64,000 nucleotides of DNA, taken from positions 30,368 through 94,367 of IMG/VR virus record IMGVR_UViG_3300036885_000228; one strand, written 5' to 3'. This document shows, in pieces, positions 3,983-54,856 of this stretch. Source of the DNA: a virus. Lineage: Duplodnaviria > Heunggongvirae > Uroviricota > Caudoviricetes. Position 1 is the first letter of the stretch. Each line of letters begins with the position of its first letter. The notes beneath the pieces are model-generated. The model was not told the origin of the DNA. It did not search any database and saw only the letters and a program-made list of their open reading frames with translations. The position numbers were made by a program, and so were the translations under genes.

Positions 3983-5608
3983 ATGTTAATAGCTTTTGAT
4001 GCATATACTGCTGGTGGTGATAATGGCGGTTCAAGTAATAGTTTGACTTACTCCCATACTTGTACAGGAAGTAATGGAATACTTTTTGTGGGTGTTCGTG
4101 GTGATGTGTTAAATGATTACGTTACTAGTGCGACTTATAATGGTGTAGCAATGAGTCTTGCTGGAAAACAGATATGTAATGGTGATAGATATGTATATTT
4201 GTTTTATTTGAAAGGTCCAGCAACTGGAACTCATAATGTTGTTGTAACTGCTAGTCAAACAATTTTAATTTCAGCAGATTCTACATCGTATACTGGTGCA
4301 TCACAAGGTGTGGGGTTAGATGCAACATCAGTCCAACAAGATGGAGGTTCTTCACCGTCTAATTTTTCAATAACAACTGTAGCTGATAATTGTTGGGTTA
4401 TTGAATGTATGCATTCTCAGTCAAATGTAACAGCTGGAGTGGGAACGACATTAAGGTCTGATGGAACAATACAACGTCCTCATCTGTGTGATACGAATGG
4501 ACCAAAAACACCAGCTGGTTCTGTTACATTGTCTTTGAATATTACTCCAGATTATAAAAATACAACAGCAATTTTAGCTTCATTTGAACCCTTTGGAATG
4601 GTTACTGAAGATGAAACATTTACAGAAGATGCTAGTATTTTACAGATTACGAATAAGACAATTGATAATGATGGAAATATTAAGATTTTAAATTCTGATA
4701 ATATTTTTACTGAAGATTGTCTTGTTCTTAATACACTTAATCGACTTTTTACTGAAGAAGGAATAGTACAAAATACGAGTAATACTGGTTTAACTGAAGA
4801 TGGTCTTACTCGTGATACATTTGGTAAGATTTTTTCTGACGATGGTATAGTCCGTGATACATTTATAGAAAGTATTATTGAAGATGGAATTATACATGTT
4901 ACTTTCACTAAGGATATTACTGAAAATGGTTTAATTAGAGATACTTTCAATAAAACTTTTTCTGACGATAGTATAATCCGTGATACATTTGATGTAAATA
5001 TTACTAATAATGGAATTGTTAAATATTCTAATAATAGAACATTTACTAGTGATGCAATAATAGTTAAAGCTAACCAAATTTTAAATTTTACTAATAATGG
5101 AAATGTTCTTATTGCTAATATTGATAAGAATTTTACTGACGATGCGATTATTCATAATGCTTATACGTTTAAATCATTGTCTAATGATGGATATGTTTCA
5201 GTCGTATCTCCAGGAATTTCTGGGCCGATGTGGGCTTTATTTACTCATAAATGCAATGTGAAAAGAAGAGCAACATATCCAATAAAAGATGCATTAAATG
5301 CTCCGAGTTATGGTACAGTCAATACGTGGATGAATGTATATGTAAATTTACCTTGTCGATTAGAAATAAGTAGTTCAGACATTCAATTCAAACCTACTGG
5401 TGAAAGAGTTGCACCAACAAATATTCTTTATGTTGATGTCTCGACACCTCTTAAAATTGAAGATCGAGTTTTTATGGTTTTTGATTCAAAAAATGATGTT
5501 GCTGGACTTGGATATCAACAAGAATTTATAGTTCAAGGTACTGTGCCAGCTTTGACGATGTTAGGACAGACTGGACATCATTCAGAATATATTTTAGTAA
5601 TGCCATGA
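3983..5608 (+). CDS. Fibre-like protein 2 (FTEDG 16-aa repeat array, 4600-5200)
   Basis: 541-aa ORF starting 4 nt after the previous stop. Central block of ..TFTEDG/FSDDG.. repeats related to those in 2..3979 and 12849..16598. Confidence 0.7.
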   Translation: MLIAFDAYTAGGDNGGSSNSLTYSHTCTGSNGILFVGVRGDVLNDYVTSATYNGVAMSLAGKQICNGDRYVYLFYLKGPATGTHNVVVTASQTILISADSTSYTGASQGVGLDATSVQQDGGSSPSNFSITTVADNCWVIECMHSQSNVTAGVGTTLRSDGTIQRPHLCDTNGPKTPAGSVTLSLNITPDYKNTTAILASFEPFGMVTEDETFTEDASILQITNKTIDNDGNIKILNSDNIFTEDCLVLNTLNRLFTEEGIVQNTSNTGLTEDGLTRDTFGKIFSDDGIVRDTFIESIIEDGIIHVTFTKDITENGLIRDTFNKTFSDDSIIRDTFDVNITNNGIVKYSNNRTFTSDAIIVKANQILNFTNNGNVLIANIDKNFTDDAIIHNAYTFKSLSNDGYVSVVSPGISGPMWALFTHKCNVKRRATYPIKDALNAPSYGTVNTWMNVYVNLPCRLEISSSDIQFKPTGERVAPTNILYVDVSTPLKIEDRVFMVFDSKNDVAGLGYQQEFIVQGTVPALTMLGQTGHHSEYILVMP

Positions 5609-5611
5609 TAT

Positions 5612-6013
5612 ATGCAGATAGGAATAAATTTTACTGGATTAACCCAATTTCAGAATAAAATTAAAACAAGACCACAATTTGCAGAAAGTGCTGCACTATT
5701 AGCAATGAAAGCTGTTATTAAGAAAATTGAGACAGATATCAAAAAAGATATAAATATACGAGGAACAATTCCAAGTTTGCCAGGAGAACCACCACATAAA
5801 GTTACTGGAAATTTATATAGTAATGTTTATAGTCGAGCAGAAAAGACTGGAAATATGACAATTACAGGAATTATAGGAGACACTGCTGAATATGCTGCAT
5901 ATCTTGAATATGGGACTTCACGAATGGCTCCTCGCCCATATTTTAGAATAAATATTGATAGAAATACTCAAATGTTTGAAAATCTAATGAAAGGGATATT
6001 AGGTAAAATATAA
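5612..6013 (+). CDS. HK97 gp10-family head-tail joining/tail component
   Basis: 133 aa. C-terminal ..TGNLYSNVY.. and AEYAAYLEYGTSRMAPRPYF match the HK97 gp10 family signature (GxLRxS ... YAxxVEfGT). Confidence 0.65.
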   Translation: MQIGINFTGLTQFQNKIKTRPQFAESAALLAMKAVIKKIETDIKKDINIRGTIPSLPGEPPHKVTGNLYSNVYSRAEKTGNMTITGIIGDTAEYAAYLEYGTSRMAPRPYFRINIDRNTQMFENLMKGILGKI

Positions 6014-10040: not shown

Positions 10041-10544
10041 ATGAGTGCTACAGTAAGCGTCAAACAAGTTGTTGGAGGTGGAGCTGGAACAGCTACCACT
10101 ATCACAAACTTGAGACACAATACCGATGACACAATCAATCCAGGAACAACCAATCCTTTGGTTAAACCGGCTGCAGGAACGAATTATGGTTATTGGAAGA
10201 CAGTCTATCTGAATGCAGATACTGCTCCTTCTAATGTGATCAATAATGTACGTTTCTTCTCTGATGGAACCGTTGGTTGGACTGGCGTAACTCTTTATTC
10301 GGGTACAACCACTGCTTATACTCAAGCAACTGGAACTGCTGGAACTACTGGTGATGTTTCTAGTGTTGCTACAACCAACATTGAAACTTATACTTCGGGT
10401 TCTCCGTTGTCAGTTAGTGGTTCGATTACCGCTGCGACTGGTGTTATTTCAGCGAATGTTATTTTGCAAGCGAGAGTTTCTACTTCCGCAGTTGCAGGAA
10501 CATTGGCTCAGGAAACGACTACTTTCAGATATGACGAAACTTAG
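10041..10544 (+). CDS. Thr/Gly/Ser-rich putative structural protein
   Basis: 167-aa ORF after a 180-bp spacer that contains TGACATC direct repeats. Composition (TTAYTQATGTAGTTG..) suggests a structural or fibre-like protein. Confidence 0.45.
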   Translation: MSATVSVKQVVGGGAGTATTITNLRHNTDDTINPGTTNPLVKPAAGTNYGYWKTVYLNADTAPSNVINNVRFFSDGTVGWTGVTLYSGTTTAYTQATGTAGTTGDVSSVATTNIETYTSGSPLSVSGSITAATGVISANVILQARVSTSAVAGTLAQETTTFRYDET

Positions 10545-11004: not shown

Positions 11005-12825
11005 ATGCGTGGTGGTAAGCTTAAAATTTTGTGGAGTTCTGTTTCACCTCAAGTTGAAACGGGATATGGAAGAGTTTCAAAAGAAATAGTTACAAGATTA
11101 AAAAAAGCAGGATTCGATATTATATATCACGGATATCAGCATCAGTTCAACCAGGATTGGGATGGTATCCAGATTTTAAAAACAGGAGAAAAAGAGCAAT
11201 TTGGTGAAGATGTTCTTACAAAATATTTTAATAAATATGAAAGAGATGTGGTAATTACTCTTTTCGACTTGTGGAAATTAAATTTTATGCCTAAGTTAGG
11301 TATTCGATGGATTCCATATTTTCCAATTGATGCAGCACCACTGACTGAACCTTTAATTGAACCTGCTAAATCTGCGTATAAGAGAATTTGTTTTAGTGAT
11401 TTTGCAAAAGAATTACTTGATAATGCAGGTATAGAAAATTCAATGATACCTCACGGTATTGATACAAAAGTCTTTAAGCCTCTGACTAATCGAGACGAAT
11501 TAAGAAAGAATTCAGGAATTGATAAAGATGATTTTATCATAGGTACAGTTGGAATGAATATTTTCGACAGAAAAGACTTTCCAAGAATGATTCGGATATT
11601 TAGTGAATTTGTTCATAAGAATAAATTAGAAAATGCTTATCTATATTTACATACTAATCCAGACATTGAACCGCCATTTGGTTTTAATATCAAAGTTTTA
11701 GCAAAACAATATAGAGTTGAGAAATTTGTAAGATGTTTTCAAAAGAATCCATTTGTTGAACCTTTACAGAATACAGGTTTAGCAAAAATGTATAACACCT
11801 TTGATGTGACAATGATAACGAGTCGTGCAGAAGGTTGTTGTTTACCAGTTTTAGAATCTCAAGCCTGTGGAGTTCCTTGCATTGTTTCTGATTATTCGGC
11901 AACTCCAGAATGGGTTAGAGGTCATGGTTGGACAGTTAAAGCGGATGACTATATTCACGCTTTAACAACTACAATGATGAACCATTGGCATTTGATGGAT
12001 ATTAATGAAGGAGTTAAAGCATTAGAAGATGCATATTTTAATAGAGGAAAAATCAAAAAATATGGAAAAATTGCAAGAGAAGAAATGCTAAAATATGATT
12101 GGGATAAGATTGTTGAAGAGAAATGGGTACCATATTTGAATGCTTTAGAAAAAGAAATATATTCTGAAACAAGAAAAATTAAAGTCAATGGTAAAGAAAT
12201 GATTGTCAGAAATGATACCATTGATGAACTTGTAGTGAATTCAGTAATAGGTCAAGGTGAGTATCGAAAAATGATTGAACTGACTAAAAAAGATAGATGG
12301 TTAGACATTGGTGGACATATTGGTTCATTTACGGTCGATATATCAAATGAAGTTGAAAATGTTTATATTTTTGAACCTGTTAAAGATAATTGGAAATTAT
12401 TGTTAAAAAACACAGAAAGTTTTACTAATGTAGGGACATATAATTACGCAATAATTGGTACTGATGATAAGACCAGAAAACTGAATCTTTTTTTACAAGG
12501 TGAACAAAATACTGGAGGGCATTCCTTAATTGGTGAAGGAGACGGAGAAGAAATCAAATGCAAAAATATAAATAATGTACTTGATGAATTCGGAATCAAT
12601 AAAATTAAATTAGATTGTGAAGGTAGTGAATATGAGATATTGAAAGCAATCACAGAGGATAATTTAAAGAAGATGAAAGAGATTATTCTTGAATACCATT
12701 TTAATCTTTTGGGTTTATCAAAATTTGAAGAACTGGTTAAATATCTTGAACCGAATTTTAAAGTTAATATTTCTAGATATATTGACATTGCTGGACAAAC
12801 TATTATTCATTGTAAAAGATTATAA
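11005..12825 (+). CDS. Glycosyltransferase (GT1/GT4-like) fused to an FkbM-family methyltransferase domain
   Basis: The N-terminal ~370 aa have the GT-B C-terminal signature (..ESQACGVPCIVSDYSATPEWV.., EX7E-like). The C-terminal ~200 aa match FkbM methyltransferases (..WLDIGGHIGSFTVD.., ..KIKLDCEGSEYEILKAI..). Confidence 0.7.
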   Translation: MRGGKLKILWSSVSPQVETGYGRVSKEIVTRLKKAGFDIIYHGYQHQFNQDWDGIQILKTGEKEQFGEDVLTKYFNKYERDVVITLFDLWKLNFMPKLGIRWIPYFPIDAAPLTEPLIEPAKSAYKRICFSDFAKELLDNAGIENSMIPHGIDTKVFKPLTNRDELRKNSGIDKDDFIIGTVGMNIFDRKDFPRMIRIFSEFVHKNKLENAYLYLHTNPDIEPPFGFNIKVLAKQYRVEKFVRCFQKNPFVEPLQNTGLAKMYNTFDVTMITSRAEGCCLPVLESQACGVPCIVSDYSATPEWVRGHGWTVKADDYIHALTTTMMNHWHLMDINEGVKALEDAYFNRGKIKKYGKIAREEMLKYDWDKIVEEKWVPYLNALEKEIYSETRKIKVNGKEMIVRNDTIDELVVNSVIGQGEYRKMIELTKKDRWLDIGGHIGSFTVDISNEVENVYIFEPVKDNWKLLLKNTESFTNVGTYNYAIIGTDDKTRKLNLFLQGEQNTGGHSLIGEGDGEEIKCKNINNVLDEFGINKIKLDCEGSEYEILKAITEDNLKKMKEIILEYHFNLLGLSKFEELVKYLEPNFKVNISRYIDIAGQTIIHCKRL

Positions 12826-21502: not shown

Positions 21503-22801
21503 ATGATATCAATTTCAAAAGATGCTAATAAAAATTATCTTGCAAAAATTGTAAGATTAGAAGGACTCAAAAAACATTCAAATGCTGACAAACTTCAAAC
21601 TGTCATTATTGATTTTCAGACAGTTATTACTGACATGAATGCAAAAGATGGAGATCTTTATGTGTTTTTTCCTCTTGAATGTCAGATTAACTTTGAATTT
21701 CTTGCACAAAATAATTCTTTTCGAGATAAAGAATTAAACAAAGATAAAACTCAATCTGGATTCTTTGAGAAGAATTGTCGAGTACGTGCAATGAAACTCA
21801 GAGGTGAAAGATCAATGGGCTATATAGTACCTATATCTGTAGTAGAAAAATTTACTAGAGATCATCTGAGTGACAGGGTTGGTAAAGAATTTGATACAAT
21901 TAATGACATTTTGTTGTTAAAGAAGTATGTTACGGTAGTTTCTCAGTCACAGCAAAGATTTCAAGGTAAGAAACCTCGAATTTCTAGACTTGTAGAAAAC
22001 CAATATCGGTTGCATATTGAAACAGAAAATCTTAAAAAGAATGCTTTTATGATTAAACCACAAGATGAGATAATGTTGAGTTACAAACTTCATGGGACCT
22101 CATTCATTGTCGGTCATGTGTTAGGTAAGAAAAAATTAAATATAATCGAGAAGACATTCAAAATATTAGGCATCAAAATTCTTGATACTGAATATGACTA
22201 TTTTTATGGAAGTAGAAAAGTTGTAAAGAATGAATTCGAGACTAAATTCAAAAATGATTTCTATGATGGAGACCTTTGGTTAGATATCAAAGACGAACTT
22301 AAAGACAAAATACCAAAGGGTTATACCGTCTATGGTGAATGTGTTGGATATACTAAAGGAGGCAAATATATTCAAACTCAATATGATTACGGGTGTGCAA
22401 TGGGACAAAAGAAATGTTATGTTTATAGAATTACTCATACGAATATAGATGGATATGTTGTAGATTTGTCAACTAATCAAATACGTGAATTCTGCATAAA
22501 GTATGGATTGAATTATATTCATGTATTTTTTCAAGGTCAAGCAGGAGAATTATATCCCGAACTCAATCCTGAGGAGTATTGGCATGAAGAGTTCATAAAA
22601 AATCTCGAAAGAGATTATACCGACAAAGATTGTTTCATGTGTAAAAATAAAGTTGCTGAAGAAGGAATTGTTCTACGAAAAGAAGGATTATTCTCTTTTG
22701 AAGCATATAAACTTAAATCGTTTCGTTTTTATGAATGGGAAACTTCTCAATTAGACAAAGAAGTTACTCGTCTTGAAGACGTGACTGGTTTTGACAATTA
22801 G
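21503..22801 (+). CDS. RNA ligase (Rnl2-like KxHG nucleotidyltransferase) with N-terminal tRNA-binding OB domain (Myf/CsaA/EMAP-like)
   Basis: N-terminus ..KKHSNADKLQTVIIDF..NAKDGDLYVFFPLEC..KLRGERSMGYIV matches the tRNA_bind signature (HPxADKL...GD.V..A..G...K.RG..S.GML). Motif I SYKLHGTSF resembles the T4 Rnl2 EKIHGTNF. Later ..YGECVGY.. and ..EEGIVLRKEG.. resemble motifs IV and V. Confidence 0.6.
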   Translation: MISISKDANKNYLAKIVRLEGLKKHSNADKLQTVIIDFQTVITDMNAKDGDLYVFFPLECQINFEFLAQNNSFRDKELNKDKTQSGFFEKNCRVRAMKLRGERSMGYIVPISVVEKFTRDHLSDRVGKEFDTINDILLLKKYVTVVSQSQQRFQGKKPRISRLVENQYRLHIETENLKKNAFMIKPQDEIMLSYKLHGTSFIVGHVLGKKKLNIIEKTFKILGIKILDTEYDYFYGSRKVVKNEFETKFKNDFYDGDLWLDIKDELKDKIPKGYTVYGECVGYTKGGKYIQTQYDYGCAMGQKKCYVYRITHTNIDGYVVDLSTNQIREFCIKYGLNYIHVFFQGQAGELYPELNPEEYWHEEFIKNLERDYTDKDCFMCKNKVAEEGIVLRKEGLFSFEAYKLKSFRFYEWETSQLDKEVTRLEDVTGFDN

Positions 22802-30181: not shown

Positions 30182-30418
30182 ATGAATGAGAAAATGTACA
30201 CGATGTACGAACTTTTTAAATCTGGAAAGATTTATTGGATTAAATCTTTTCCGACTTTACGTAAGTGGATTTTACGAGATATGTCATCTCAGAATTTGTT
30301 AGGCACGAAAGTCATTTCTGCAAATGCAGGAAAAACAGGTATTAGATACTTCATACCCGAAGACAATATTGTCAAATTCGTAAATGCATTTAATGATAAA
30401 AGTTTGTATGCAAAATAA
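30182..30418 (+). CDS. Hypothetical protein (start trimmed to first ATG after the upstream stop)
   Basis: The ORF-track start 30125 overlaps the previous gene. ATG 30182 gives a 78-aa product. Confidence 0.35.
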   Translation: MNEKMYTMYELFKSGKIYWIKSFPTLRKWILRDMSSQNLLGTKVISANAGKTGIRYFIPEDNIVKFVNAFNDKSLYAK

Positions 30419-38449: not shown

Positions 38450-38818
38450 ATGAAAGACATTTTACAGAAAGTAGCATCTCTCTGCAAAGATAATGAGAGA
38501 ACACTTTTAGAGAAGTACGATTTAATTGACAAGGATTCTCCAAGAGGAAAAGATTGTAATGGATTATTCATGGAGAAGACGACTTGTGAAGGAGATAAGT
38601 TGTTGGCTTTGCTATTATGGAATGAAAAGAGACCAGAAATTATTGAAATGTTGAAGAAGATGTCAGCCAAAGATGCATCTAAAGCTAGAAAGAGAATCAA
38701 GGAAGCATTCCTTGACAATCTTAAAGTAAAAGATGACGAGGAAATTCTTGGAATGGATGACGAATTGAAAGCAGAACAAGAACTTACATCAGAGGGAGAA
38801 GTCAAAGATGAGGAGTAA
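38450..38818 (+). CDS. Acidic protein (possible DNA-mimic-like; speculative)
   Basis: 122 aa with a strongly acidic C-terminal third (..DDEEILGMDDELKAEQELTSEGEVKDEE). Confidence 0.4.
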   Translation: MKDILQKVASLCKDNERTLLEKYDLIDKDSPRGKDCNGLFMEKTTCEGDKLLALLLWNEKRPEIIEMLKKMSAKDASKARKRIKEAFLDNLKVKDDEEILGMDDELKAEQELTSEGEVKDEE

Positions 38819-38836
38819 TAACTAAACAATATATTT

Positions 38837-39133
38837 ATGACATTATTTAAGAAAGGTTCCTCATCTGAAGAAGACAAACCATCTGAGTCAGAAGAGGAGA
38901 TTAAGAAAATCAAAATCAGTATAGGTCGGTTGGGAGTTGGAGTGGATGTAAAATATGTCAATCCTGATTCAACAATCAAAAAGATATTAGATGATAATGG
39001 TTACGAATTAGGAAAGAACGAAAAAGTTCATCTGAATGGTACAAAGTTGACTGATGATGAAGTAAAGAAGACTATACCAACAAAGAATTCAGTTATTGCA
39101 ATAGTAGGAGCAAAAGAAGGTGGTATTAAATAA
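38837..39133 (+). CDS. Ubiquitin-like beta-grasp protein (ThiS/MoaD-like) with GG followed by a 2-residue C-terminal extension
   Basis: ..KVHLNGTKLTDDEVKKTIPTKNSVIAIVGAKEGG-IK* fits the ThiS/MoaD pattern (..vNG..v......l.dgD.v.i.p.vsGG) with two extra residues after GG. Confidence 0.55.
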   Translation: MTLFKKGSSSEEDKPSESEEEIKKIKISIGRLGVGVDVKYVNPDSTIKKILDDNGYELGKNEKVHLNGTKLTDDEVKKTIPTKNSVIAIVGAKEGGIK

Positions 39134-39154
39134 TACTTCAAGGGAAATCAAAAG

Positions 39155-40876
39155 TTGATTTTCCTGAAAGTGATATTTAATTTTATGGTCACAACTGGAG
39201 ACACCTCAATATTTCGTCGATCTACAACTTTAGATGGTTGGACGACTGCAATGACTACATCCGGTTCAGTTACGAGTGATCAATATTCACTATATACTAG
39301 TTATGCAGTTGCTCAAGGAGTTTTTTCTAATACAATATTAGACCCGGTAAGTACAGAATCATCAAAACGAGAACATAAAGTCAATGTATTAAAGCAAAAG
39401 ATGATTGACTTTTATTCAAATCAATTTGTAAATATAGGATTTGATGACATTAAACCTGACATGATAGCAATGAAGAAATGGTTTTTGTTATACGTCTCAA
39501 ATAAAAAATTAGATAAAAAGAGGGAAGTGAAATTATATCAGACAATATTAAAGTCATTTGATTCAGAATATCGGAAGTATAAAAAAGCAAAGAATAGAAA
39601 AGTTAAAGCAGTTTGTAGAGATGAGATATTGAAACTTTTCGATTTTACAACTAGACTACCAAGTGGAATATTTATTAAAGAAGTAAAGAAAAGAGTTGTA
39701 GAGATAAAAAAGAAAATCAAAATACTTGAAACCGAGATTAGTTGCAATACAAATTTTTATGAAACGATTCTTTCATTGACCGGAAACCGACTAATTGAAT
39801 CATTCGGTCATGCAAAGAATGATGAGTTTGGGTTTTATTTTATTACTAAACCACTTGAATTAGTATATACCAATACGAAATTCGTAGAATCGAATGGTAA
39901 GTTAGGTCGATTTTTAATCCGTCTATCCTGCTATGGTGGTCGACATGATATTAAAATTATAAATTTGACACGAAAGCATATTACGGGAGGACATGAACAT
40001 TTTTGCATAATCGAGAATGTATGTTGGGGAGAGAATGGAGAGTATATTAGTAAAATTTTAGATTCGGGTAATTTGAATACTTTAATTATTTCAATTATTT
40101 CATTTTTAGAAACTCCAGCATATAAAAGCCCATACATGAACCCAATTGAAAGGTGGTTTAATGAAGCATCTACAATTCACTATACAAAATTATCTGACAT
40201 AATCAAAATAAATAGAATAGTCAAAAAAGATATAATTACATTTTACAATGGGGGTGAAAGACCGACAAGTACAAATTCGGGGCAATGTGTCGAAATGATT
40301 CAAGGGGCAAGAGATCTCATTGGGTCAACAATAACATCAGAAGGGCGAGTTTATCGAGAAATTTTCTATGAACAATATCGAGTAGTATTACGAGAAGGTC
40401 CGGAAATGTTTAACCACGCATTACAATCAATTTTTTCAAATATCATAAATATTGAGGCACCTCGTAGATTTTCAAGATTAAGAGAATTTGCAACCCCCGA
40501 TTCAGAACATTTACGAGTTGTTGATTATTTTATTTCAGTAATTGAGTCAATTGTTAGACAAATTTCAAATTTTTATCCAGATACTGATTATACATTTGTC
40601 TTTTCTGAGATACATCATTCATTTAGTGATTGGGCTTCCCGCGGATATCAATATATTACATTTGGGAATCTCGACCAAATAGGATTGACAACTGATGCAT
40701 ATGTAATTATATCGATGATACCGAGAGATGAATTCATTTCAATGTTTGGACACCAACTTGGACGATTAGGTCGTCAATTTATAAATCGACAACAGATGAA
40801 TACATCACCAGCAACTTTTCATCCAATGTATGACCAACAATTGCATGGAAGATTAAGAGGTGTCACAACAAATTAG
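39155..40876 (+). CDS. Large protein of unknown function between the Ubl and JAB genes (candidate E2-like/target/effector)
   Basis: 573-aa ORF with no recognised motif. A conserved-looking Cys/His segment ..HITGGHEHFCIIENVCWGENG... Its stop overlaps the JAB gene start. Confidence 0.45.
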   Translation: MIFLKVIFNFMVTTGDTSIFRRSTTLDGWTTAMTTSGSVTSDQYSLYTSYAVAQGVFSNTILDPVSTESSKREHKVNVLKQKMIDFYSNQFVNIGFDDIKPDMIAMKKWFLLYVSNKKLDKKREVKLYQTILKSFDSEYRKYKKAKNRKVKAVCRDEILKLFDFTTRLPSGIFIKEVKKRVVEIKKKIKILETEISCNTNFYETILSLTGNRLIESFGHAKNDEFGFYFITKPLELVYTNTKFVESNGKLGRFLIRLSCYGGRHDIKIINLTRKHITGGHEHFCIIENVCWGENGEYISKILDSGNLNTLIISIISFLETPAYKSPYMNPIERWFNEASTIHYTKLSDIIKINRIVKKDIITFYNGGERPTSTNSGQCVEMIQGARDLIGSTITSEGRVYREIFYEQYRVVLREGPEMFNHALQSIFSNIINIEAPRRFSRLREFATPDSEHLRVVDYFISVIESIVRQISNFYPDTDYTFVFSEIHHSFSDWASRGYQYITFGNLDQIGLTTDAYVIISMIPRDEFISMFGHQLGRLGRQFINRQQMNTSPATFHPMYDQQLHGRLRGVTTN

Positions 40877-41639
40877 TATGAATGAAATTCAACCAATTTT
40901 ATTTTTTGAACCGAAGACATTTCAAAAACTGTGGAATTATACGATATTCTGTGATACTGAAATTTCTGGAATGGGATTAGTACGAGAACTTTCACCGAAT
41001 ATTTTTTTATGTTATGATATTAAAATATATCAACAAACATGTTCACCAGTAATGACAAAGATCGAAAGTGAAGAACTAGCAAAATGTTATACACAATTAG
41101 TAAGAAGAGGAAAGGGACAAGAAAAGGACATGAACCTTTGGTGGCATTCACATAACACGATGGGAGTATTTTGGTCACCACGAGACAGAAGTGAAATTAG
41201 TGAATGGTCAAATTCAGGATATGGTATTTCATTAGTAGTAAATAAAAGAATGGAATATTTATGTCGAGTTGATATTTTTAAACCTTTACAAATAATAATT
41301 CCAGATATTAAAATTGAACAGAAGACAATAGAAGAATATGATGAAATATTAGCAGAAAAATGTAAGAAAGAAGTTAAAAATAAAGTAAATTATTTATGGA
41401 AATCAAAGATCAAGACAGATACCTTAGACAAAGTGATGTATTTACCCCACCAGATAGTAAATCAACGCAAATTTCCATTGTTGGATGTGGGGGAATTGGA
41501 AGTTGGACTGGATACGTTTTATCAAAACTTGGGATTGCCAATATCACCTTATTCGACTTTGACATTGTTGAATCAAAAAATCTCGCCTCCCAATTTTTCG
41601 ATACAACCGATATCGGGAAAAACAAAGCCATTGCCTTAG
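40860..41639 (+). CDS. JAB/MPN (JAMM) metallopeptidase
   Basis: ..CDTEISGMGLV.. (upstream Glu), then WWHSHNTMGVFWSPRD, which is an exact H-x-H-x7-S-x2-D JAMM motif. The 3' 244 nt overlap the E1 gene in another frame. Confidence 0.7.
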   Translation: MSQQISMNEIQPILFFEPKTFQKLWNYTIFCDTEISGMGLVRELSPNIFLCYDIKIYQQTCSPVMTKIESEELAKCYTQLVRRGKGQEKDMNLWWHSHNTMGVFWSPRDRSEISEWSNSGYGISLVVNKRMEYLCRVDIFKPLQIIIPDIKIEQKTIEEYDEILAEKCKKEVKNKVNYLWKSKIKTDTLDKVMYLPHQIVNQRKFPLLDVGELEVGLDTFYQNLGLPISPYSTLTLLNQKISPPNFSIQPISGKTKPLP

Positions 41640-42055
41640 GTAAGAAATTAAGAAAGAATGGGACATTTGTAGTTTCAGTTGCTGCAGAATATGACATGAC
41701 TGGAAATGAAGACATTTTAATTGTTGCAGTTGACAGTATAAAAATAAGAAAGAACATAGCAAAGAAGTTAATCAAAAATGATCATTGGCCAAAGTACATC
41801 ATTGATGGTAGAATGGGATTGGAACAAATGGAAATATATACATATAGATCCCCAATGACCTGGTTGAATGATTTACCAGATGAAAATAATGTAGACCATG
41901 AACCTTGTACTGCTAAAGCAATTGCATATAATACATCAGTAATTGGTGGATTGATATCTAGCATCATTAAAAAGATAATAAAAGGTGAGAAATTTCCACA
42001 GAGTATCATATTTGATTTGATTACATATACAGCAATTATTCAGTCTGAATCTTAA
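41396..42055 (+). CDS. E1-like activating enzyme (ThiF/MoeB/HesA family)
   Basis: N-terminal RYLRQ. ..ISIVGCGGIGSWTGYVLSKLGIANITLFDFDIVESKNLASQFF.. fits the Rossmann GxGxxG plus D.D.V..SNL.RQ-like motif. Confidence 0.7.
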   Translation: MEIKDQDRYLRQSDVFTPPDSKSTQISIVGCGGIGSWTGYVLSKLGIANITLFDFDIVESKNLASQFFDTTDIGKNKAIALGKKLRKNGTFVVSVAAEYDMTGNEDILIVAVDSIKIRKNIAKKLIKNDHWPKYIIDGRMGLEQMEIYTYRSPMTWLNDLPDENNVDHEPCTAKAIAYNTSVIGGLISSIIKKIIKGEKFPQSIIFDLITYTAIIQSES

Positions 42056-42203: not shown

Positions 42204-42917
42204 ATGGTCATTAAAAATTCTACACCTTGGTCAACTTCAGACATAAAAGCGGTTTTCCGCAGATGTGTCAAAGAAGTTGAGAAGGTAAGGCGGCCAAAAC
42301 TTCCATTTCATAGGAAGAACAAACATTTCAAACTTGACATTCTAAATGGAACTCATTGGAGTGGTCGAGCAACGGTAAATGGCTATTGGATAATGGCAAG
42401 AATTCCACGAGAATGGAGTATTAAACGAGAGATGCCATCTAAACCAAATGAGATTGATTTAGAAAATAAATACAATGTCTATTGGGTAGATGGAAAGAAC
42501 TCTTCGTCAGCAATGAGAATACCATTTGGTCAGGAGGAAGATATCAAAAATTATCCAAGTTATTGGCCAATTGTTGGAAATGAGAATGAAATTTCTTATG
42601 ATAACAAAGTGCAATTTGCAAGAATTCTCATTCATGAATATTTTCATTCAATTGGGTATGGTTATGAAGATATCGATCATCATAATTATGCGCATGACTT
42701 TACTAATAAATGGAATGTTGATTGGATAAAAGAATATCCAATACGAATCAAAGAAAAACAAAAAGGAAAGACCACTGATGAAAAATTTCAGTTAAAGTAT
42801 GATCGTGCAGTTGTTAATTTTAGGAGATCTGAAACTCGTCTAAAACGAGCAAAGACTATTTTTAACAAATGGCAACGAAAGGTCTCATATTACGAGACAA
42901 AAGTAGGTAAGAAATAA
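42204..42917 (+). CDS. Putative zinc metallopeptidase (HExxH)
   Basis: ..ARILIHEYFHSIGYGYEDIDHH.. has an HEYFH motif with downstream His residues. Confidence 0.45.
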   Translation: MVIKNSTPWSTSDIKAVFRRCVKEVEKVRRPKLPFHRKNKHFKLDILNGTHWSGRATVNGYWIMARIPREWSIKREMPSKPNEIDLENKYNVYWVDGKNSSSAMRIPFGQEEDIKNYPSYWPIVGNENEISYDNKVQFARILIHEYFHSIGYGYEDIDHHNYAHDFTNKWNVDWIKEYPIRIKEKQKGKTTDEKFQLKYDRAVVNFRRSETRLKRAKTIFNKWQRKVSYYETKVGKK

Positions 42918-42977: not shown

Positions 42978-43625
42978 ATGAAACAAAGTATTAAACGAGA
43001 ATTAATTGCAATAGTAATTGCGATTATAGTTGCTACTATTCTTAGTGGGATTGGATATATAGCAATAAAATTGAGTCTGAACCATTGGGCAGAAAATCAA
43101 AAGTCAGTTGTGAATTATGTCAATGGATTTACTCATATTTATAAAGGTCAAACGTTAAGTCCTGAAAATTATCCTAATGCAATTATTAAACTTTCCCGTA
43201 GAGCATCTTATCTTCACGAAAGTGAATATCTTTCACTTCCTGCTGCAGTAGCAATTGAAACAATGATTAAAGATGCAGAGCAAGATGGAATGTGTTTAGT
43301 TGTAATGTCAGGATATAGAAGTGCTAAAAGTCAAGAAAAATTATATGAAGAAACTGGTGATAAATCAAAAGTAGCTTTACCAGGTCAAAGTGAACATCAA
43401 ACCGGACTTGCAGTTGACTTTGGTGGATGTCCTATGAAGAATGGAGTTCGAAATGATTCAGTTGAAAGACATGAACTTGTAAATGATTTTAGTACTTTAC
43501 CTGAATATAAATGGTTGCAAGACAATGCATCAAAATATGGATTTGAGCAAAGTTTTACTGCTAGTAATACTGCAGAAACCGGTTATGCAAATGAACCTTG
43601 GCATTTTAAATTAATTCTACATTAA
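42978..43625 (+). CDS. Peptidase M15 (VanY/L-Ala-D-Glu peptidase-like) cell-wall hydrolase with N-terminal transmembrane anchor; candidate endolysin
   Basis: N-terminal TM helix (LIAIVIAIIVATILSGIGYIAI). ..VMSGYRS...Q.. then GQSEHQTGLAVDF and EPWHF match M15 motifs (SxHxxGxAxD, EWWH). Confidence 0.65.
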   Translation: MKQSIKRELIAIVIAIIVATILSGIGYIAIKLSLNHWAENQKSVVNYVNGFTHIYKGQTLSPENYPNAIIKLSRRASYLHESEYLSLPAAVAIETMIKDAEQDGMCLVVMSGYRSAKSQEKLYEETGDKSKVALPGQSEHQTGLAVDFGGCPMKNGVRNDSVERHELVNDFSTLPEYKWLQDNASKYGFEQSFTASNTAETGYANEPWHFKLILH

Positions 43626-43986: not shown

Positions 43987-44784
43987 ATGGAGACAAAAAG
44001 TTTAGTTAAGTTGATTATTGGTGGAATTATCGGCATTTTTCTACTGGTAGTCATCTTTAGTTCGTTTGCTATTGTCAATGCTGGCGAAAGAGGTGTCGTC
44101 TTGAATTGGGGAGCAGTTTCTCAAGATGTAAGAGGTGAGGGATTACATTGGTTGATTCCCTTCAAACAGTCGATGAAGATAGTCGATGTCAAGAACATTA
44201 AGATTGAAACGAAGACTCAATCATATTCAAAAGACATTCAGACAGTGGATGTTTCTTTGGCTTTAAATTATAATGTTAAGCCAGATTTAGCAGCAAAGAT
44301 ATATCAAGAAGTTGGTACGACTTATCAATCAACGATTATCGATCCTGCAATTCAAGAAAGTGTTAAAGCTGCAGTTGCATTATTTACTGCTCAGGAACTG
44401 ATTGAACAAAGACCAAAGGTTAAAGATGCGATTACTCTAGAATTGACTAATCGGTTGAGCAATTATTTTGTTGTTAGCCAGTTCTCAATCACTGATTTCT
44501 CATTTTCTAATGAGTATGAAAAAGCAGTAGAAGCTAAACAGGTTGCTCAACAGAAAGCATTGGAACAAGAAAATATTACAAAGCAAGTAGAAGAACAGAA
44601 AAAGCAGACTATTCTTGCAGCTCAAGCTCAAGCAGAAGCAATTAAAATTCAAGCAGAAGCTATCACTCAGCAAGGTGGTGCAGATTATGTCAAATTACAG
44701 GCAATTAATAAGTGGAATGGAATCTTACCGACACAATTCGTTCCTGGAAGTGCTATTCCTTTTCTGGATTTGACTACAAAATAA
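43987..44784 (+). CDS. SPFH/Band-7 (prohibitin/HflC-like) membrane protein
   Basis: N-terminal TM helix, then ..AIVNAGERGVVLNWGAVSQDVRGEGLHWLIPF.. and a C-terminal coiled coil. Typical of the SPFH domain. Confidence 0.65.
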   Translation: METKSLVKLIIGGIIGIFLLVVIFSSFAIVNAGERGVVLNWGAVSQDVRGEGLHWLIPFKQSMKIVDVKNIKIETKTQSYSKDIQTVDVSLALNYNVKPDLAAKIYQEVGTTYQSTIIDPAIQESVKAAVALFTAQELIEQRPKVKDAITLELTNRLSNYFVVSQFSITDFSFSNEYEKAVEAKQVAQQKALEQENITKQVEEQKKQTILAAQAQAEAIKIQAEAITQQGGADYVKLQAINKWNGILPTQFVPGSAIPFLDLTTK

Positions 44785-44839: not shown

Positions 44840-45364
44840 ATGAATGACGAAATAAAAGAGATTCTCAAATTTAGCAATTGGATTGAGCGTGAATATTCAA
44901 AAGAAGCATTAGAAGATGCTTTACGTGCTTGGAAATATGCTAAAGCAAACATTGACAACATTAGTCTTGATTACATTTTGAAGATACATTATCTATTGAT
45001 GAGACGTATTCGACCAGATATTGCTGGAAAAATACGACACTGTGATGTATGGATCGGTGGACATCCAAAAATATTTGTCTCTGAATATTTGATCAAGACA
45101 GATTTGATGATAAGAGTATGTTATGAGATGTTAGCAAAAGGATGTACAACAATTGAACAGAAAGAAGAAAAAACTAAAGAGATACATAAAGATTTTGAGT
45201 CAGTTCACCCATTCGAAGATGGCAATGGTAGAGTTGGAAGAATACTTTACCAAATCCACCGAATTAAACTTGGACTCAAACCAAAAATGATTACAGGTCC
45301 TGCACAAGGAAAAGAAATGACAAAGGACCAACTTGAATATTACAAATGGTTTTCTAATTTTTGA
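44840..45364 (+). CDS. Fic/Doc-family protein
   Basis: HPFEDGNGRVGRIL matches the canonical Fic motif HPFx(D/E)GNGR. Confidence 0.75.
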   Translation: MNDEIKEILKFSNWIEREYSKEALEDALRAWKYAKANIDNISLDYILKIHYLLMRRIRPDIAGKIRHCDVWIGGHPKIFVSEYLIKTDLMIRVCYEMLAKGCTTIEQKEEKTKEIHKDFESVHPFEDGNGRVGRILYQIHRIKLGLKPKMITGPAQGKEMTKDQLEYYKWFSNF

Positions 45365-53392: not shown

Positions 53393-54856
53393 ATGAGCAA
53401 GTTTAACAAAAAAAAGTTAGGAACAAAGACAATCAATAAAGCAGGAGGTCAAGCATTTAAGGAGACTACTGAGTTAGAACTCGTTTCTCTTTTACTTACT
53501 TCTTTCTTAAAGGACAAATTTTACGAAAAAGAAGAAGAGCAATTAGAAAGATTGCAGAATTTAGTCGGTGGGTTAAAAGACAAAAAATTTGCTGCTAAAG
53601 CTGCAATTTATGCTCGTACAGTTTTTGGAATGAGATCAATTACTCATGCATTGATTGGAGAAATTTGTAAGATGGTCAAAGGTGAACAATGGGTTAAGAA
53701 TGCAGTAGAAAAAGCAGTTTATCGTCCTGATGACATGCTTGAAATTCTTGCTTATGTTAGAGACGATAAAACTACACCAATTCCAAATTCATTGAAAAAG
53801 GGATTAAGATTAGCAATCAATAAGTTTGACAAGTATTCTTTAGCTAAGTATAAAGGAGGAGGACACGAATTCAAAATGGTCGATTTAATTAATTTAGTAC
53901 ATCCAAAAGGTTCTGGTAAATTGGCTGAAATTTTTAAAGAATTAGTTGAAGGGAAATTGAAGACTGAAAATACTTGGGAAAGAAATTTATCAGATGCTGG
54001 ACAAAAAGTTAAAGATATTGAAGACGAAAATGAGAAAGAGGAAGCATTGAAAGAAGCAAAGGATAATGTCTGGAAAGACATGATTAAGGAAAAGAAAATT
54101 GGAACATTTGCTTTATTGAGAAATCTTCGTAACATTGTTCAGCAATCTCCAGATTCAATTGACGATGCTTGTGAATTACTTGTTGATGAAAAGAAAATTA
54201 AAAATTCATTGATTCTGCCTTTTAGATTCAAAACTGCAATGGACGAATTAGGTAAGGTAGATGGTAGTAGGAAAATTTTAACTGCAATTAGTAAAGCATT
54301 GGATATTTCAGTTTCAAATGTGCCAAAATTTGATGGGAAGACTCTTGTAGTAATTGATAAATCTGGTTCGATGAATGGGAAACCAATAGAAATTGCTTCT
54401 ATCTTTGGTGCAATATTATACAAATCAAATGATGCAGATTTAATGTATTTTTCTGAAGGTACAAAGAATGTCAATCTTAATACCGAGGATAGTACAATGA
54501 CAATTGCTAATGAGATTGAACACGATGGTTGGGGTGGAGGAACTGATTTTACTGTAATTTTTCCAGCACTTACAAAAAAGTATGATAGGATTATAATCTT
54601 AAGTGATATGCAAGGTTGGGTTAATGATTGGAGAGGAGAATCAACACCAATAAGAGGATTTAGAGATTATAAAATAAGACTTGGTATCAATCCGAAGATT
54701 TATTCATTCGATCTAAACGGGTATGGGACACTTGAGTTCCCCGAGAATGATGTATTCTGCATTGCAGGATGGAGTGATAAAATTTTTGATGTAATGAAGA
54801 TTATGGAACAAGATAGAAATGCATTAATTAAAAAGATAAACGAAATTGAACTTTAA
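53393..54856 (+). CDS. rsr: Ro60 orthologue (TROVE domain plus vWA domain)
   Basis: N-terminus MSKFNKKKLGTKTINKAGGQAFKETTELELVSLLLTSFLKDKFYE...AAIYARTVFGMRSITHAL is TROVE-like. C-terminus ..LVVIDKSGSMNG.. is the vWA MIDAS DxSxS motif. Total 487 aa, as expected for Ro60. Confidence 0.75.
   Translation: MSKFNKKKLGTKTINKAGGQAFKETTELELVSLLLTSFLKDKFYEKEEEQLERLQNLVGGLKDKKFAAKAAIYARTVFGMRSITHALIGEICKMVKGEQWVKNAVEKAVYRPDDMLEILAYVRDDKTTPIPNSLKKGLRLAINKFDKYSLAKYKGGGHEFKMVDLINLVHPKGSGKLAEIFKELVEGKLKTENTWERNLSDAGQKVKDIEDENEKEEALKEAKDNVWKDMIKEKKIGTFALLRNLRNIVQQSPDSIDDACELLVDEKKIKNSLILPFRFKTAMDELGKVDGSRKILTAISKALDISVSNVPKFDGKTLVVIDKSGSMNGKPIEIASIFGAILYKSNDADLMYFSEGTKNVNLNTEDSTMTIANEIEHDGWGGGTDFTVIFPALTKKYDRIIILSDMQGWVNDWRGESTPIRGFRDYKIRLGINPKIYSFDLNGYGTLEFPENDVFCIAGWSDKIFDVMKIMEQDRNALIKKINEIEL

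Follow-up and report, generated by a model that had tools for sequence, protein, structure and literature searches.

Conjugation of ubiquitin-like proteins (Ubls) in prokaryotes has so far been known as a weapon of the host against phages, in the Bil systems, in type II systems of anti-phage signaling based on cyclic oligonucleotides (CBASS) and probably in Bub. In Bil, the JAB peptidase BilC pre-processes the Ubl BilA, which carries up to 9 residues after its conserved Gly, and an activating (E1) and a conjugating (E2) enzyme then attach it to lysines (10.1101/2023.09.26.559546). The target of host Bil is the central tail fibre of the phage. Here we describe a four-gene cassette in a 64,000-nucleotide (nt) stretch of a tailed phage of the Caudoviricetes (IMG/VR record IMGVR_UViG_3300036885_000228, positions 30,368 to 94,367; the whole stretch is referred to as the window). 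It encodes a Ubl precursor, an E2, a JAMM peptidase of the JAB family and a minimal E1, and we think it probable that the cassette is a self-contained, phage-encoded ubiquitin-like protein-conjugation cascade. What can be seen directly in the data is what the four parts are, that their catalytic residues and their adjacency are conserved, and that the distribution of the cassette centres on viruses. With moderate to good confidence we regard the cassette as a new virus-borne variant of the prokaryotic Ubl conjugation systems.

An earlier annotation made from the letters of the stretch (the sequence-only reading) had pointed to four consecutive open reading frames (ORFs) on the + strand. Checking ORFs and motifs we found all four where they had been placed, and all motifs quoted for them were correct. 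A 244-nt overlap between the JAB and E1 ORFs had been overlooked. The features of the cassette are as follows:

38837..39133, + strand: Ubl precursor (pro-Ubl) of 98 amino acids (aa), ending ...GAKEGGIK
39185..40876, + strand: E2-bearing protein, 563 aa from ATG; the ORF is open from a TTG at 39155 (573 aa)
40878..41639, + strand: JAMM/MPN+ metallopeptidase, 253 aa from the ATG start used in the public gene call; the ORF is open from a GTG (40860..41639, 259 aa)
41396..42055, + strand: minimal E1-like adenylyltransferase, 219 aa, with a single adenylation domain
41396..41639, + strand: 244-nt stretch shared, in different frames, by the JAB 3' end and the E1 5' end; it includes the nucleotide-binding loop of the E1

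The 573-aa protein had been left unexplained by the sequence-only reading, and as far as family libraries are concerned this was correct: the protein has no match in Pfam (E ≤ 1), PHROGs, PADLOC or NCBIfam, stays below the gathering threshold of Pfam UQ_con and does not match Pfam Prok-E2. A word-indexed protein search with it returned one near-identical protein only, and the same kind of search with the E2-core alignment returned no match. An exhaustive HMMER search recovered ten distant homologues, which have only a core of ~130 residues in common, and further copies were collected from the neighborhoods of JAB homologues. In the resulting alignment a Cys-x-Gly is invariant and a His eight residues upstream of it is nearly invariant; a helix and the motif FLxxPxYxxPY follow. 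This pattern parallels the HPN...C...LLxxPNPxxP of ubiquitin-conjugating enzymes, and the motif of the wider family is HP[HCN][IV]x3-10C[WLF]G. Searching the family profile against PDB sequences gave 12 matches, individually weak (E 0.5-1.4), and 12 of 12 were E2s; the HPN His and the catalytic Cys of UbcH7 align on the two conserved residues. The same His/Cys register was obtained when the profile was aligned to UbcH7 with hhalign (probability 76%, E 2e-5, 102 columns).

The predicted structure of the core is consistent with this result. In a model of medium confidence it shows the N-terminal helix, the four-stranded antiparallel sheet, the active-site loop and the C-terminal helices of the UBC fold, and Foldseek ranks UBE2L3 and Cap2 first for the modelled core, with UFC1 also among the matches. 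A single-sequence AlphaFold2 model of the whole 563-aa protein was unusable (mean pLDDT 36). Residues are numbered from the ATG at 39185, which is the likely start as in the 95%-identical homologue P0001. The protein begins with a coiled coil, continues with the UBC/E2-like core at approximately residues 164-324 (nt ~39674-40156) and ends in ~240 aa of no known fold that are common only to P0001 and P0008. The candidate active site comprises His272 (39998-40000) and Cys280 (40022-40024), followed by Gly282, which places the HPN-type His within the 7-10 residues ahead of the catalytic Cys that are expected of an E2. The 573-aa protein is an E2 with a UBC-fold core, a fold that the sequence-only reading had proposed to look for, so that the gene set, which it had counted as a triad, is a tetrad of pro-Ubl, E2, JAMM peptidase and minimal E1.

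Outside the core the E2 proteins differ between loci in their accessory domains, which include coiled coils, SH3/KOW-like N-termini and Cys-rich C-termini. Cys-rich ends, e.g. CENCGWYSCQCPRCGFCGQRDCICD..., were observed on several E2 proteins of relatives (L002 6189-6932, L003 986-2281 and L025 3308-4999); the protein of the window does not have one. In appearance they resemble zinc ribbons or treble clefs, and they could serve the E2 as an integral E3-like module or as one for binding targets.

The 98-aa product consists of an acidic, Ser-rich N-terminal part of ~25 aa, a predicted beta-grasp domain, Gly95-Gly96 (nt 39119-39124) and an Ile-Lys tail (39125-39130). Taken alone, it has no match in Pfam, PHROGs, PADLOC or NCBIfam, and weak Pfam matches to TGS, ThiS or Ub-Mut7C occur in only a few members of its family. 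A profile built from 7 members aligns with P. furiosus PF1061/SAMP2 over the full length as far as the GG (E 3.7e-4), and the next matches are MoaD and ThiS. The profile comparison thereby suggests a Ubl precursor of the ThiS/MoaD/SAMP2 class, which would agree with the ThiS/MoaD-like fold proposed earlier. In 32 of 34 distinct Ubls a variable tail follows the GG or AG, typically of 1-3 aa, sometimes of 34-43 acidic residues and at most of ~45 aa, and 2 of the 34 end at a naked GG. Such variable tails suggest a precursor that requires a processing peptidase, and on this comparative basis the earlier proposal that the JAB trims the C-terminus of the Ubl appears well placed.

The putative zinc site of the peptidase is made up of E34 together with HSHNTMGVFWSPRD, i.e. 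H96-x-H98-x7-S106-x2-D109 (nt 41145-41186). The Glu, the HxH, the Ser and the Asp are invariant in 46 distinct homologues, and the HxHx7Sx2D motif is as intact as it had been described. The family profile matches the Rpn11-like protein of Caldiarchaeum (6fjv, E 6e-10) and Rpn11 of the proteasome (E 3e-6). Among PDB sequences it returned no BubCD at E ≤ 1, though a BubCD structure is present there, and no Cap3 or BilC entry. The single sequence of the window has no Pfam match and only a PADLOC JAB match at E 0.015. Conservation of the JAB stops near residue 178, and its last 81 codons overlap with the E1 gene.

The assignment of the fourth product to the ThiF/E1 family was borne out by a Pfam ThiF match of 69.9 bits (cutoff 28.1; E 2.3e-19; residues 22-199). 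The protein contains the GCGGIGS loop, D54/D56 (DxD), K77, D113 and Cys171 (nt 41906-41908) in a PC[TG] motif. Across 46 distinct E1 homologues R11, D54, D56, N62, K77, D113, R118, D137, R139 and C171 are invariant. The unusual Ser noticed earlier in place of the Arg of the canonical SNLNRQ motif was likewise confirmed: the window E1 reads KNLASQ, with Ser65 (nt 41588-41590) at the Arg position, and none of the 46 homologues has an Arg at position 65, where S, V, N, T or A is found instead. Against PDB sequences the family profile finds human UBA5 best (E 9e-17), then Uba1, MccB, MoeB, BubCD (6e-8) and Cap2 (2e-7). The best PADLOC matches of the E1 are Cap2 models, in their E1 part only (E 1e-12).

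In the overlap the E1 is read in the JAB frame shifted by -1 (the JAB is in +1 relative to the E1). The same overlap with the same frame relation is found in L004 (220 nt, 10098-10317), L009 (271 nt, 5507-5777) and L010 (103 nt, 5435-5537); it is not present in L002, L003 and L007 and is thus limited to a sub-clade. Stop-free runs of at least 80 codons in the frame of the overlap are rare in the genes of the window (1 of 723 runs, P ~0.002). In public gene calls the conflict between the two genes is settled at the expense of the E1, which is shortened to a 119-aa product without a Pfam domain. As standard gene callers cut the E1 at this point, the ThiF domain, and with it the system, is hidden from domain-based annotation. 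Since JAB conservation ends exactly at the E1 start and the frame relation is kept, we considered a JAB-E1 fusion by programmed -1 frameshifting similar to BubCD. This was rejected, as no conserved or canonical slippery heptamer was found near the junction in four loci; the only slippery-like sequences were GGGAAAA 24 nt before the JAB stop of the window and AAAAAAG in L010.

The cassette was found in ~70 other loci: 44 on IMG/VR viral contigs, 8 on metagenome contigs, 18 on contigs of metagenome-assembled genomes (MAGs) and none in an isolate genome. For IMG/VR we scanned with one short JAB peptide pattern, and the 44 loci lie on viral contigs of 6-193 kb. Applied to 185,579 species genomes, the same pattern gave the 18 loci, all of them in MAGs. 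When 50 loci were clustered with hidden Markov models (HMMs) and BLAST, all 50 had a JAB and 47 had an E1; a Ubl was present in no fewer than 37, and no fewer than 38 had an E2 from one or the other of two divergent clusters. Most of the missing components are accounted for by contig ends. At least E2-JAB-E1 is present in 11 of the 18 MAG loci and all four parts in 9 of 18. The remaining MAG loci have JAB-E1 only (1, on a short contig), E2-JAB only (5, Methylomirabilota and related) or the JAB alone (1). Three gene orders occur: Ubl-E2-JAB-E1 is the commonest, and E1-Ubl-E2-JAB and E2-JAB-E1-Ubl are rotations of it. In distant relatives, found by way of their JAB or E2 proteins, identity to the window is 25-49% for the JAB and 19-25% for the full-length E2. 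The recurrence in ~70 independent loci indicates that the gene set did not arise by chance, and the adjacency of the tetrad in essentially all loci recovered with the JAB, in three different orders, argues for a functional unit and not merely an inherited gene order. The search for the same order, which the sequence-only reading had suggested for phage databases, thus revealed a conserved virus-centred family instead of a one-off, and the lack of synteny that would have spoken against the proposal was not seen. The INPHARED phage records contained nothing that matched the cassette at the DNA level, nor any protein that matched the 573-aa protein or the JAB.

The gene order of the window is kept on a contig that is 95% related to it (L001). 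When L001 (2637-5501) is compared with 39185-42055 of the window, the acidic protein encoded upstream of the Ubl, the Ubl itself and the first ~45 residues of the E2 are ~70-75% identical. Beyond E2 residue ~50 there is hardly any difference up to the end of the E1 (JAB 100% identical, E1 3 substitutions). This sharp step in divergence points to recent recombination, or to a recent exchange of the module, with its breakpoint within the E2 gene.

We then compared the cassette with the described systems. BilABCD (Types I and II) has the same four components, and its order of Ubl, E2, JAB and E1 is identical to the commonest order here. In both, the conserved C-terminal Gly of the Ubl is followed by a short non-conserved tail (32 of 34 Ubls here), which in Bil is removed by the JAB, and in both an E3 is lacking; the Bil E2 is thought to pick the target. 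In contrast to Bil, the E1 of the cassette is a 219-aa protein with one ThiF domain and without the BilD architecture, and its nearest relatives of solved structure, UBA5 and MoeB, are single-domain as well. The catalytic Cys of BilB precedes its His, whereas here, in the manner of eukaryotic E2s, the His comes first and the Cys 8 residues later, and hhalign detected no similarity between the E2 family profile and E. aridi BilB (probability 0.05%). Two defining features of Bil, the E1 architecture and the E2 homology, are therefore not shared by the cassette; furthermore Bil is a host-encoded defence, while the cassette is encoded by a phage. Bub (6E/DUF6527) resembles it in having a minimal homodimeric ThiF/UBA5-like E1 tightly coupled to the JAB that matures the Ubl, a coupling which here takes the form of overlapping genes. 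However, Bub forms Ser/Tyr oxyesters without a catalytic Cys, its E2 having a Ser in the active site and its E1 no Cys in the crossover loop, while a Cys is invariant in both E1 and E2 of the cassette. In addition Bub contains the serine protease BubE (DUF6527) as well as Ubl-E2 and JAB-E1 fusions, and none of the scanned flanking ORFs of the window matched DUF6527. Type II CBASS (Cap2/Cap3) shares the E1, E2 and JAB chemistry, and Cap2 appears among the PADLOC matches of the E1 and the Foldseek matches of the E2. But CBASS has no Ubl, as the cGAS/DncV-like nucleotidyltransferase (CD-NTase) itself is conjugated, and its E1 and E2 are fused. In the window they are separate genes, with no CD-NTase among the scanned neighbors and no effector.

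Further similarities point to archaea and eukaryotes. The ubiquitin operon of Caldiarchaeum subterraneum (pro-ubiquitin, E1, E2, small RING, Rpn11-like protein) likewise uses an extended pro-modifier that is matured by an Rpn11-type JAMM peptidase and then passed to E1 and E2. Its Rpn11-like protein is the best PDB match of the JAB family, and its E2 has a canonical HPN-type motif. It differs in being archaeal and cellular and in having a RING E3, a larger E1 and true ubiquitin rather than a ThiS/SAMP2-like Ubl. Ufmylation (UBA5-UFC1-UFM1) supplies the best PDB match of the E1, UBA5, and UFC1 is among the Foldseek matches of the modelled E2 core. Like the pro-Ubl, UFM1 is synthesised with two further residues behind its Gly. 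Ufmylation differs from the cassette in that it is eukaryotic, its modifier is matured by UfSP cysteine proteases and not by a JAMM peptidase, UFC1 lacks the HPN and the E3 UFL1 is needed. UBA5 is a minimal homodimeric E1 with its catalytic Cys in the crossover loop (PMC11601596). The archaeal SAMP/UbaA/JAMM1 system and the ThiS-ThiF and MoaD-MoeB pairs are similar in the profile match of the Ubl, the ThiF-superfamily E1 and the JAMM partner; they have no E2, and the E1 of the cassette stays below the ThiF, MoeB and UbaA equivalog cutoffs. Judging by the ranking of PDB matches, we have the impression that the parts are nearer to the archaeal/eukaryotic lineage (UBA5, UbcH7-type E2, Rpn11, SAMP2) than to Bil, Bub or Cap2.

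For phages, the sole association of a Ubl with a JAB described earlier is that of the lambda/T1 proteins I (Ubl) and K (JAB-NlpC/P60) (PMC1779556), which belong to the tail module, have other domain fusions and come without E1 or E2. A paper on Asgard viruses reports E1-like genes only. In the literature within our coverage, which leaves many subscription papers outside, no description of a complete phage-encoded cascade was found. The view that the gene set is encoded by a phage and fits no characterised system stands: its genomic context is that of a phage, and the comparisons with BilB and with the NCBIfam equivalog models were negative.

The window has a GC content of ~31%, all its long ORFs lie on the + strand, and by its gene content it is a piece of a phage genome. 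Among its products are a RIFT-domain tail protein, a PrimPol-DnaB primase-helicase, a family-B DNA polymerase (PolB), DNA and RNA ligases, a uracil-DNA glycosylase (UDG), the thymidylate synthase ThyX, a thymidylate kinase (Tmk) and a dUTPase-like protein. The cassette is located in the replication/nucleotide-metabolism module, ~35 kb from the tail genes. Replication-type neighbors recur, with UDG, primase and ligase in the window and UDG, primase or NrdD in relatives. Because of this location we infer that the cassette acts inside the infected cell in the early or middle phase, where it would tag host or phage proteins and serve takeover or counter-defence rather than virion building.

A plausible sequence of events can be proposed from the homologies. 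The 98-aa Ubl would be made as a precursor, from which the JAMM peptidase removes the two residues after the Gly-Gly. The minimal ThiF/UBA5-like E1, presumably as a homodimer, would adenylate the exposed Gly96 and probably then load the Ubl on the invariant Cys171 as a thioester. From there the Ubl would be handed to Cys280 in the UBC/E2-like core of the 573-aa protein. The variable coiled-coil and C-terminal regions of the E2 protein would choose the target to which the Ubl is attached; the cassette lacks an E3, as has been proposed of Bil. Removal of the Ubl from its target is probably a further activity of the JAMM peptidase.

Several points weigh against a complete and active conjugation cascade. 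Each chemical step is deduced from homology and conservation, and the early-phase, host-directed role from the gene neighborhood only. Without the ATP-contacting Arg of SNLNRQ the adenylation chemistry of this E1 family could be altered, although the invariant family-specific R118, R139 and D137 may represent a rearrangement of the active site that compensates for its loss. Cys171 is only the presumed counterpart of the catalytic Cys of UBA5 (Cys250). Finally, the E2 motif of the window is a variant, HEHF...VCWG, and not HPx.

The same biochemistry could also serve defence, with the phage carrying a Bil-like system for superinfection exclusion that tags structural proteins of competitors. The components and their order match BilA-B-C-D, and variable E2 accessory domains are typical of conflict systems. 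Nevertheless we consider this role unlikely, as neither the BilB similarity nor the BilD architecture is found and as the family is concentrated in viral contigs, where it lies in replication modules rather than defence islands. The uniform + orientation of the window and the absence of an integrase among its scanned genes speak in the same direction, the latter being a weak point since only part of the ORFs was scanned. In a second scenario only the JAB works, as an anti-defence deconjugase that strips host Bil, CBASS or Bub conjugates, and the other genes are leftovers or decoys titrating host enzymes. JAB and E1 are indeed the most conserved pair and the sole parts detectable in cultured crAss-like and FpV4 phages. 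However, strong conservation throughout the family extends to the E2 Cys/His, to the E1 adenylation residues and to the GG with which the Ubl domain ends, unlike what is expected of leftovers, and we regard this scenario as extremely improbable.

The neighborhood of the cassette bears on two other explanations. UDG, the dUTPase-like protein, Tmk and ThyX would suit a sulfur-carrier pathway, in which the Ubl, adenylated by the E1, is thiocarboxylated and supplies sulfur for a thio-modified nucleotide, tRNA or cofactor, and the JAB matures the carrier as in QbsD/Mec+-type systems. The Ubl profile falls in the ThiS/MoaD/SAMP2 class, and the best NCBIfam models of the E1 are ThiF and MoeB. But the E1 is well below every NCBIfam ThiF, MoeB and UbaA equivalog cutoff, reaching 68 bits where ThiF requires 159 and 37 where MoeB requires 377, and we found no rhodanese, cysteine desulfurase, PP-loop ATPase or ThiG/MoaE-type acceptor in the cassette genes and the scanned flanking ORFs. 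An E2-fold protein with an invariant Cys is obligate across ~70 loci, while classical sulfur-carrier systems have no E2. A sulfur carrier is on these grounds quite improbable: the E2 fold of the 573-aa protein favours protein conjugation of the Bil/Cap2-like type. Among the roles that the sequence-only reading had proposed, modification of proteins is thereby strengthened and thio-modification disfavoured. Distance from the tail genes, in turn, makes a role in virion assembly very improbable. Here the Ubl would be a chaperone or a transient covalent tag on a structural protein as in lambda/T1 tail assembly, and Ubl + JAB pairs are in fact documented in tail-assembly clusters of phages (PMC1779556). 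However, neither an E1 nor an E2 accompanies the lambda-type pair, whose JAB carries a fused NlpC/P60 domain that is absent here, and the cassette lies amid replication genes. We therefore retain protein conjugation in the infected cell as the preferred explanation.

The genes next to the cassette do not form part of its core:

38450..38818, + strand: acidic 122-aa protein directly upstream of the Ubl; possible accessory
42204-42917: 237-aa protein with an HExxH-like motif (HEYFH), immediately downstream of the E1

The acidic protein, to which the sequence-only reading had drawn attention, is present, but homologues at the same position occur only in L001 (121 aa) and L004 (91 aa), both closely related to the window. 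It formed no family in at least 5 loci when neighbors were clustered and has no family-library match, so it does not count as a core part. The 237-aa protein gave no match in Pfam, PHROGs, NCBIfam or PDB sequences and is not kept beside the cassette in other loci.

A VanY-type D-Ala-D-Ala carboxypeptidase, probably the endolysin, follows at 42978-43625 and indicates a bacterial host. An archaeal-virus origin, which we considered in view of the E1-like genes in Asgard viruses, was rejected because both the VanY carboxypeptidase and the Bacteroidota-phage relatives argue for a bacterial host. The VanY gene adjoins a gene for a phage-encoded SPFH/Band 7 membrane-scaffold protein (43987-44784, Pfam E 2e-35). 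Approximately 3 kb downstream of the cassette a 174-aa Fic/DOC-family protein is encoded (44840-45364; Pfam Fic E 4e-11) with the canonical motif HPFEDGNGRVGR; it is a second potential protein-modifying (AMPylating) enzyme near the cassette. Further away the window contains a TROVE (Ro60-like) domain protein (53393-54856) and an RNA ligase with a PHA02142 OB domain (21503-22801). Ro60 homologues usually act together with Y-RNA-like small RNAs. Between structural genes, at 11005-12825, a 606-aa fusion of a family-4 glycosyltransferase and an FkbM methyltransferase domain is encoded; its Pfam matches include one to 'GT4 in conflict systems' that is weak and does not reach the cutoff.

Homologues of the E1 with ~28% identity are found in cultured phages, namely FpV4-type phages of Flavobacterium, crAss-like Kehishuvirus (Bacteroides intestinalis) and Xanthomonas jumbo phages, where they go under the name "thiamine biosynthesis protein". 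Directly upstream of the E1, both FpV4 and PhiCrAssBcn15 have a member of the JAB family (E 2e-16 and 3e-15, respectively), with a UDG nearby:

NC_041872.1 60019-68546 (L053), Flavobacterium phage FpV4: JAB-E1 pair
OQ221550.1 47076-57600 (L072), Bacteroides phage PhiCrAssBcn15: JAB-E1 pair

These pairs are annotated as hypothetical or as 'metalloprotease' and 'thiamine biosynthesis protein'. Small proteins encoded upstream of them contain ...KQVKSGG or ...KIKSGA followed by long C-terminal extensions and may be Ubl fusions. Candidates for E2 and Ubl recognised by eye in the FpV4 and crAss-like phages (...KQVKSGG..., MHSH...C.G), upstream proteins of 420-444 aa for the E2 and of 225-289 aa for a Ubl fusion, found no support in hhalign and HMM comparisons and were rejected.

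If the cassette works as proposed, a complete cascade carried by phages would reverse the picture of Ubl conjugation as a host weapon, and protein tagging would join the tools of takeover and counter-defence. We tentatively extend this to the idea that tailed phages of several lineages carry a complete E1-E2-Ubl-deubiquitinase cascade for offence, tagging defence or replication factors of the host during takeover, maybe including distant crAss-like and FpV4-type versions; viruses would then possibly be a reservoir or vehicle of the canonical ubiquitination machinery, although we hold this broader view to be doubtful at present. The culturable crAss-like and Flavobacterium phages with a JAB-E1 core make the question accessible to experiment. 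With its 219-aa E1 and eukaryote-type His...Cys E2 the compact family is an attractive minimal model for the transfer from E1 to E2, and it bears on the spread of the canonical E2 and Rpn11-type machinery.

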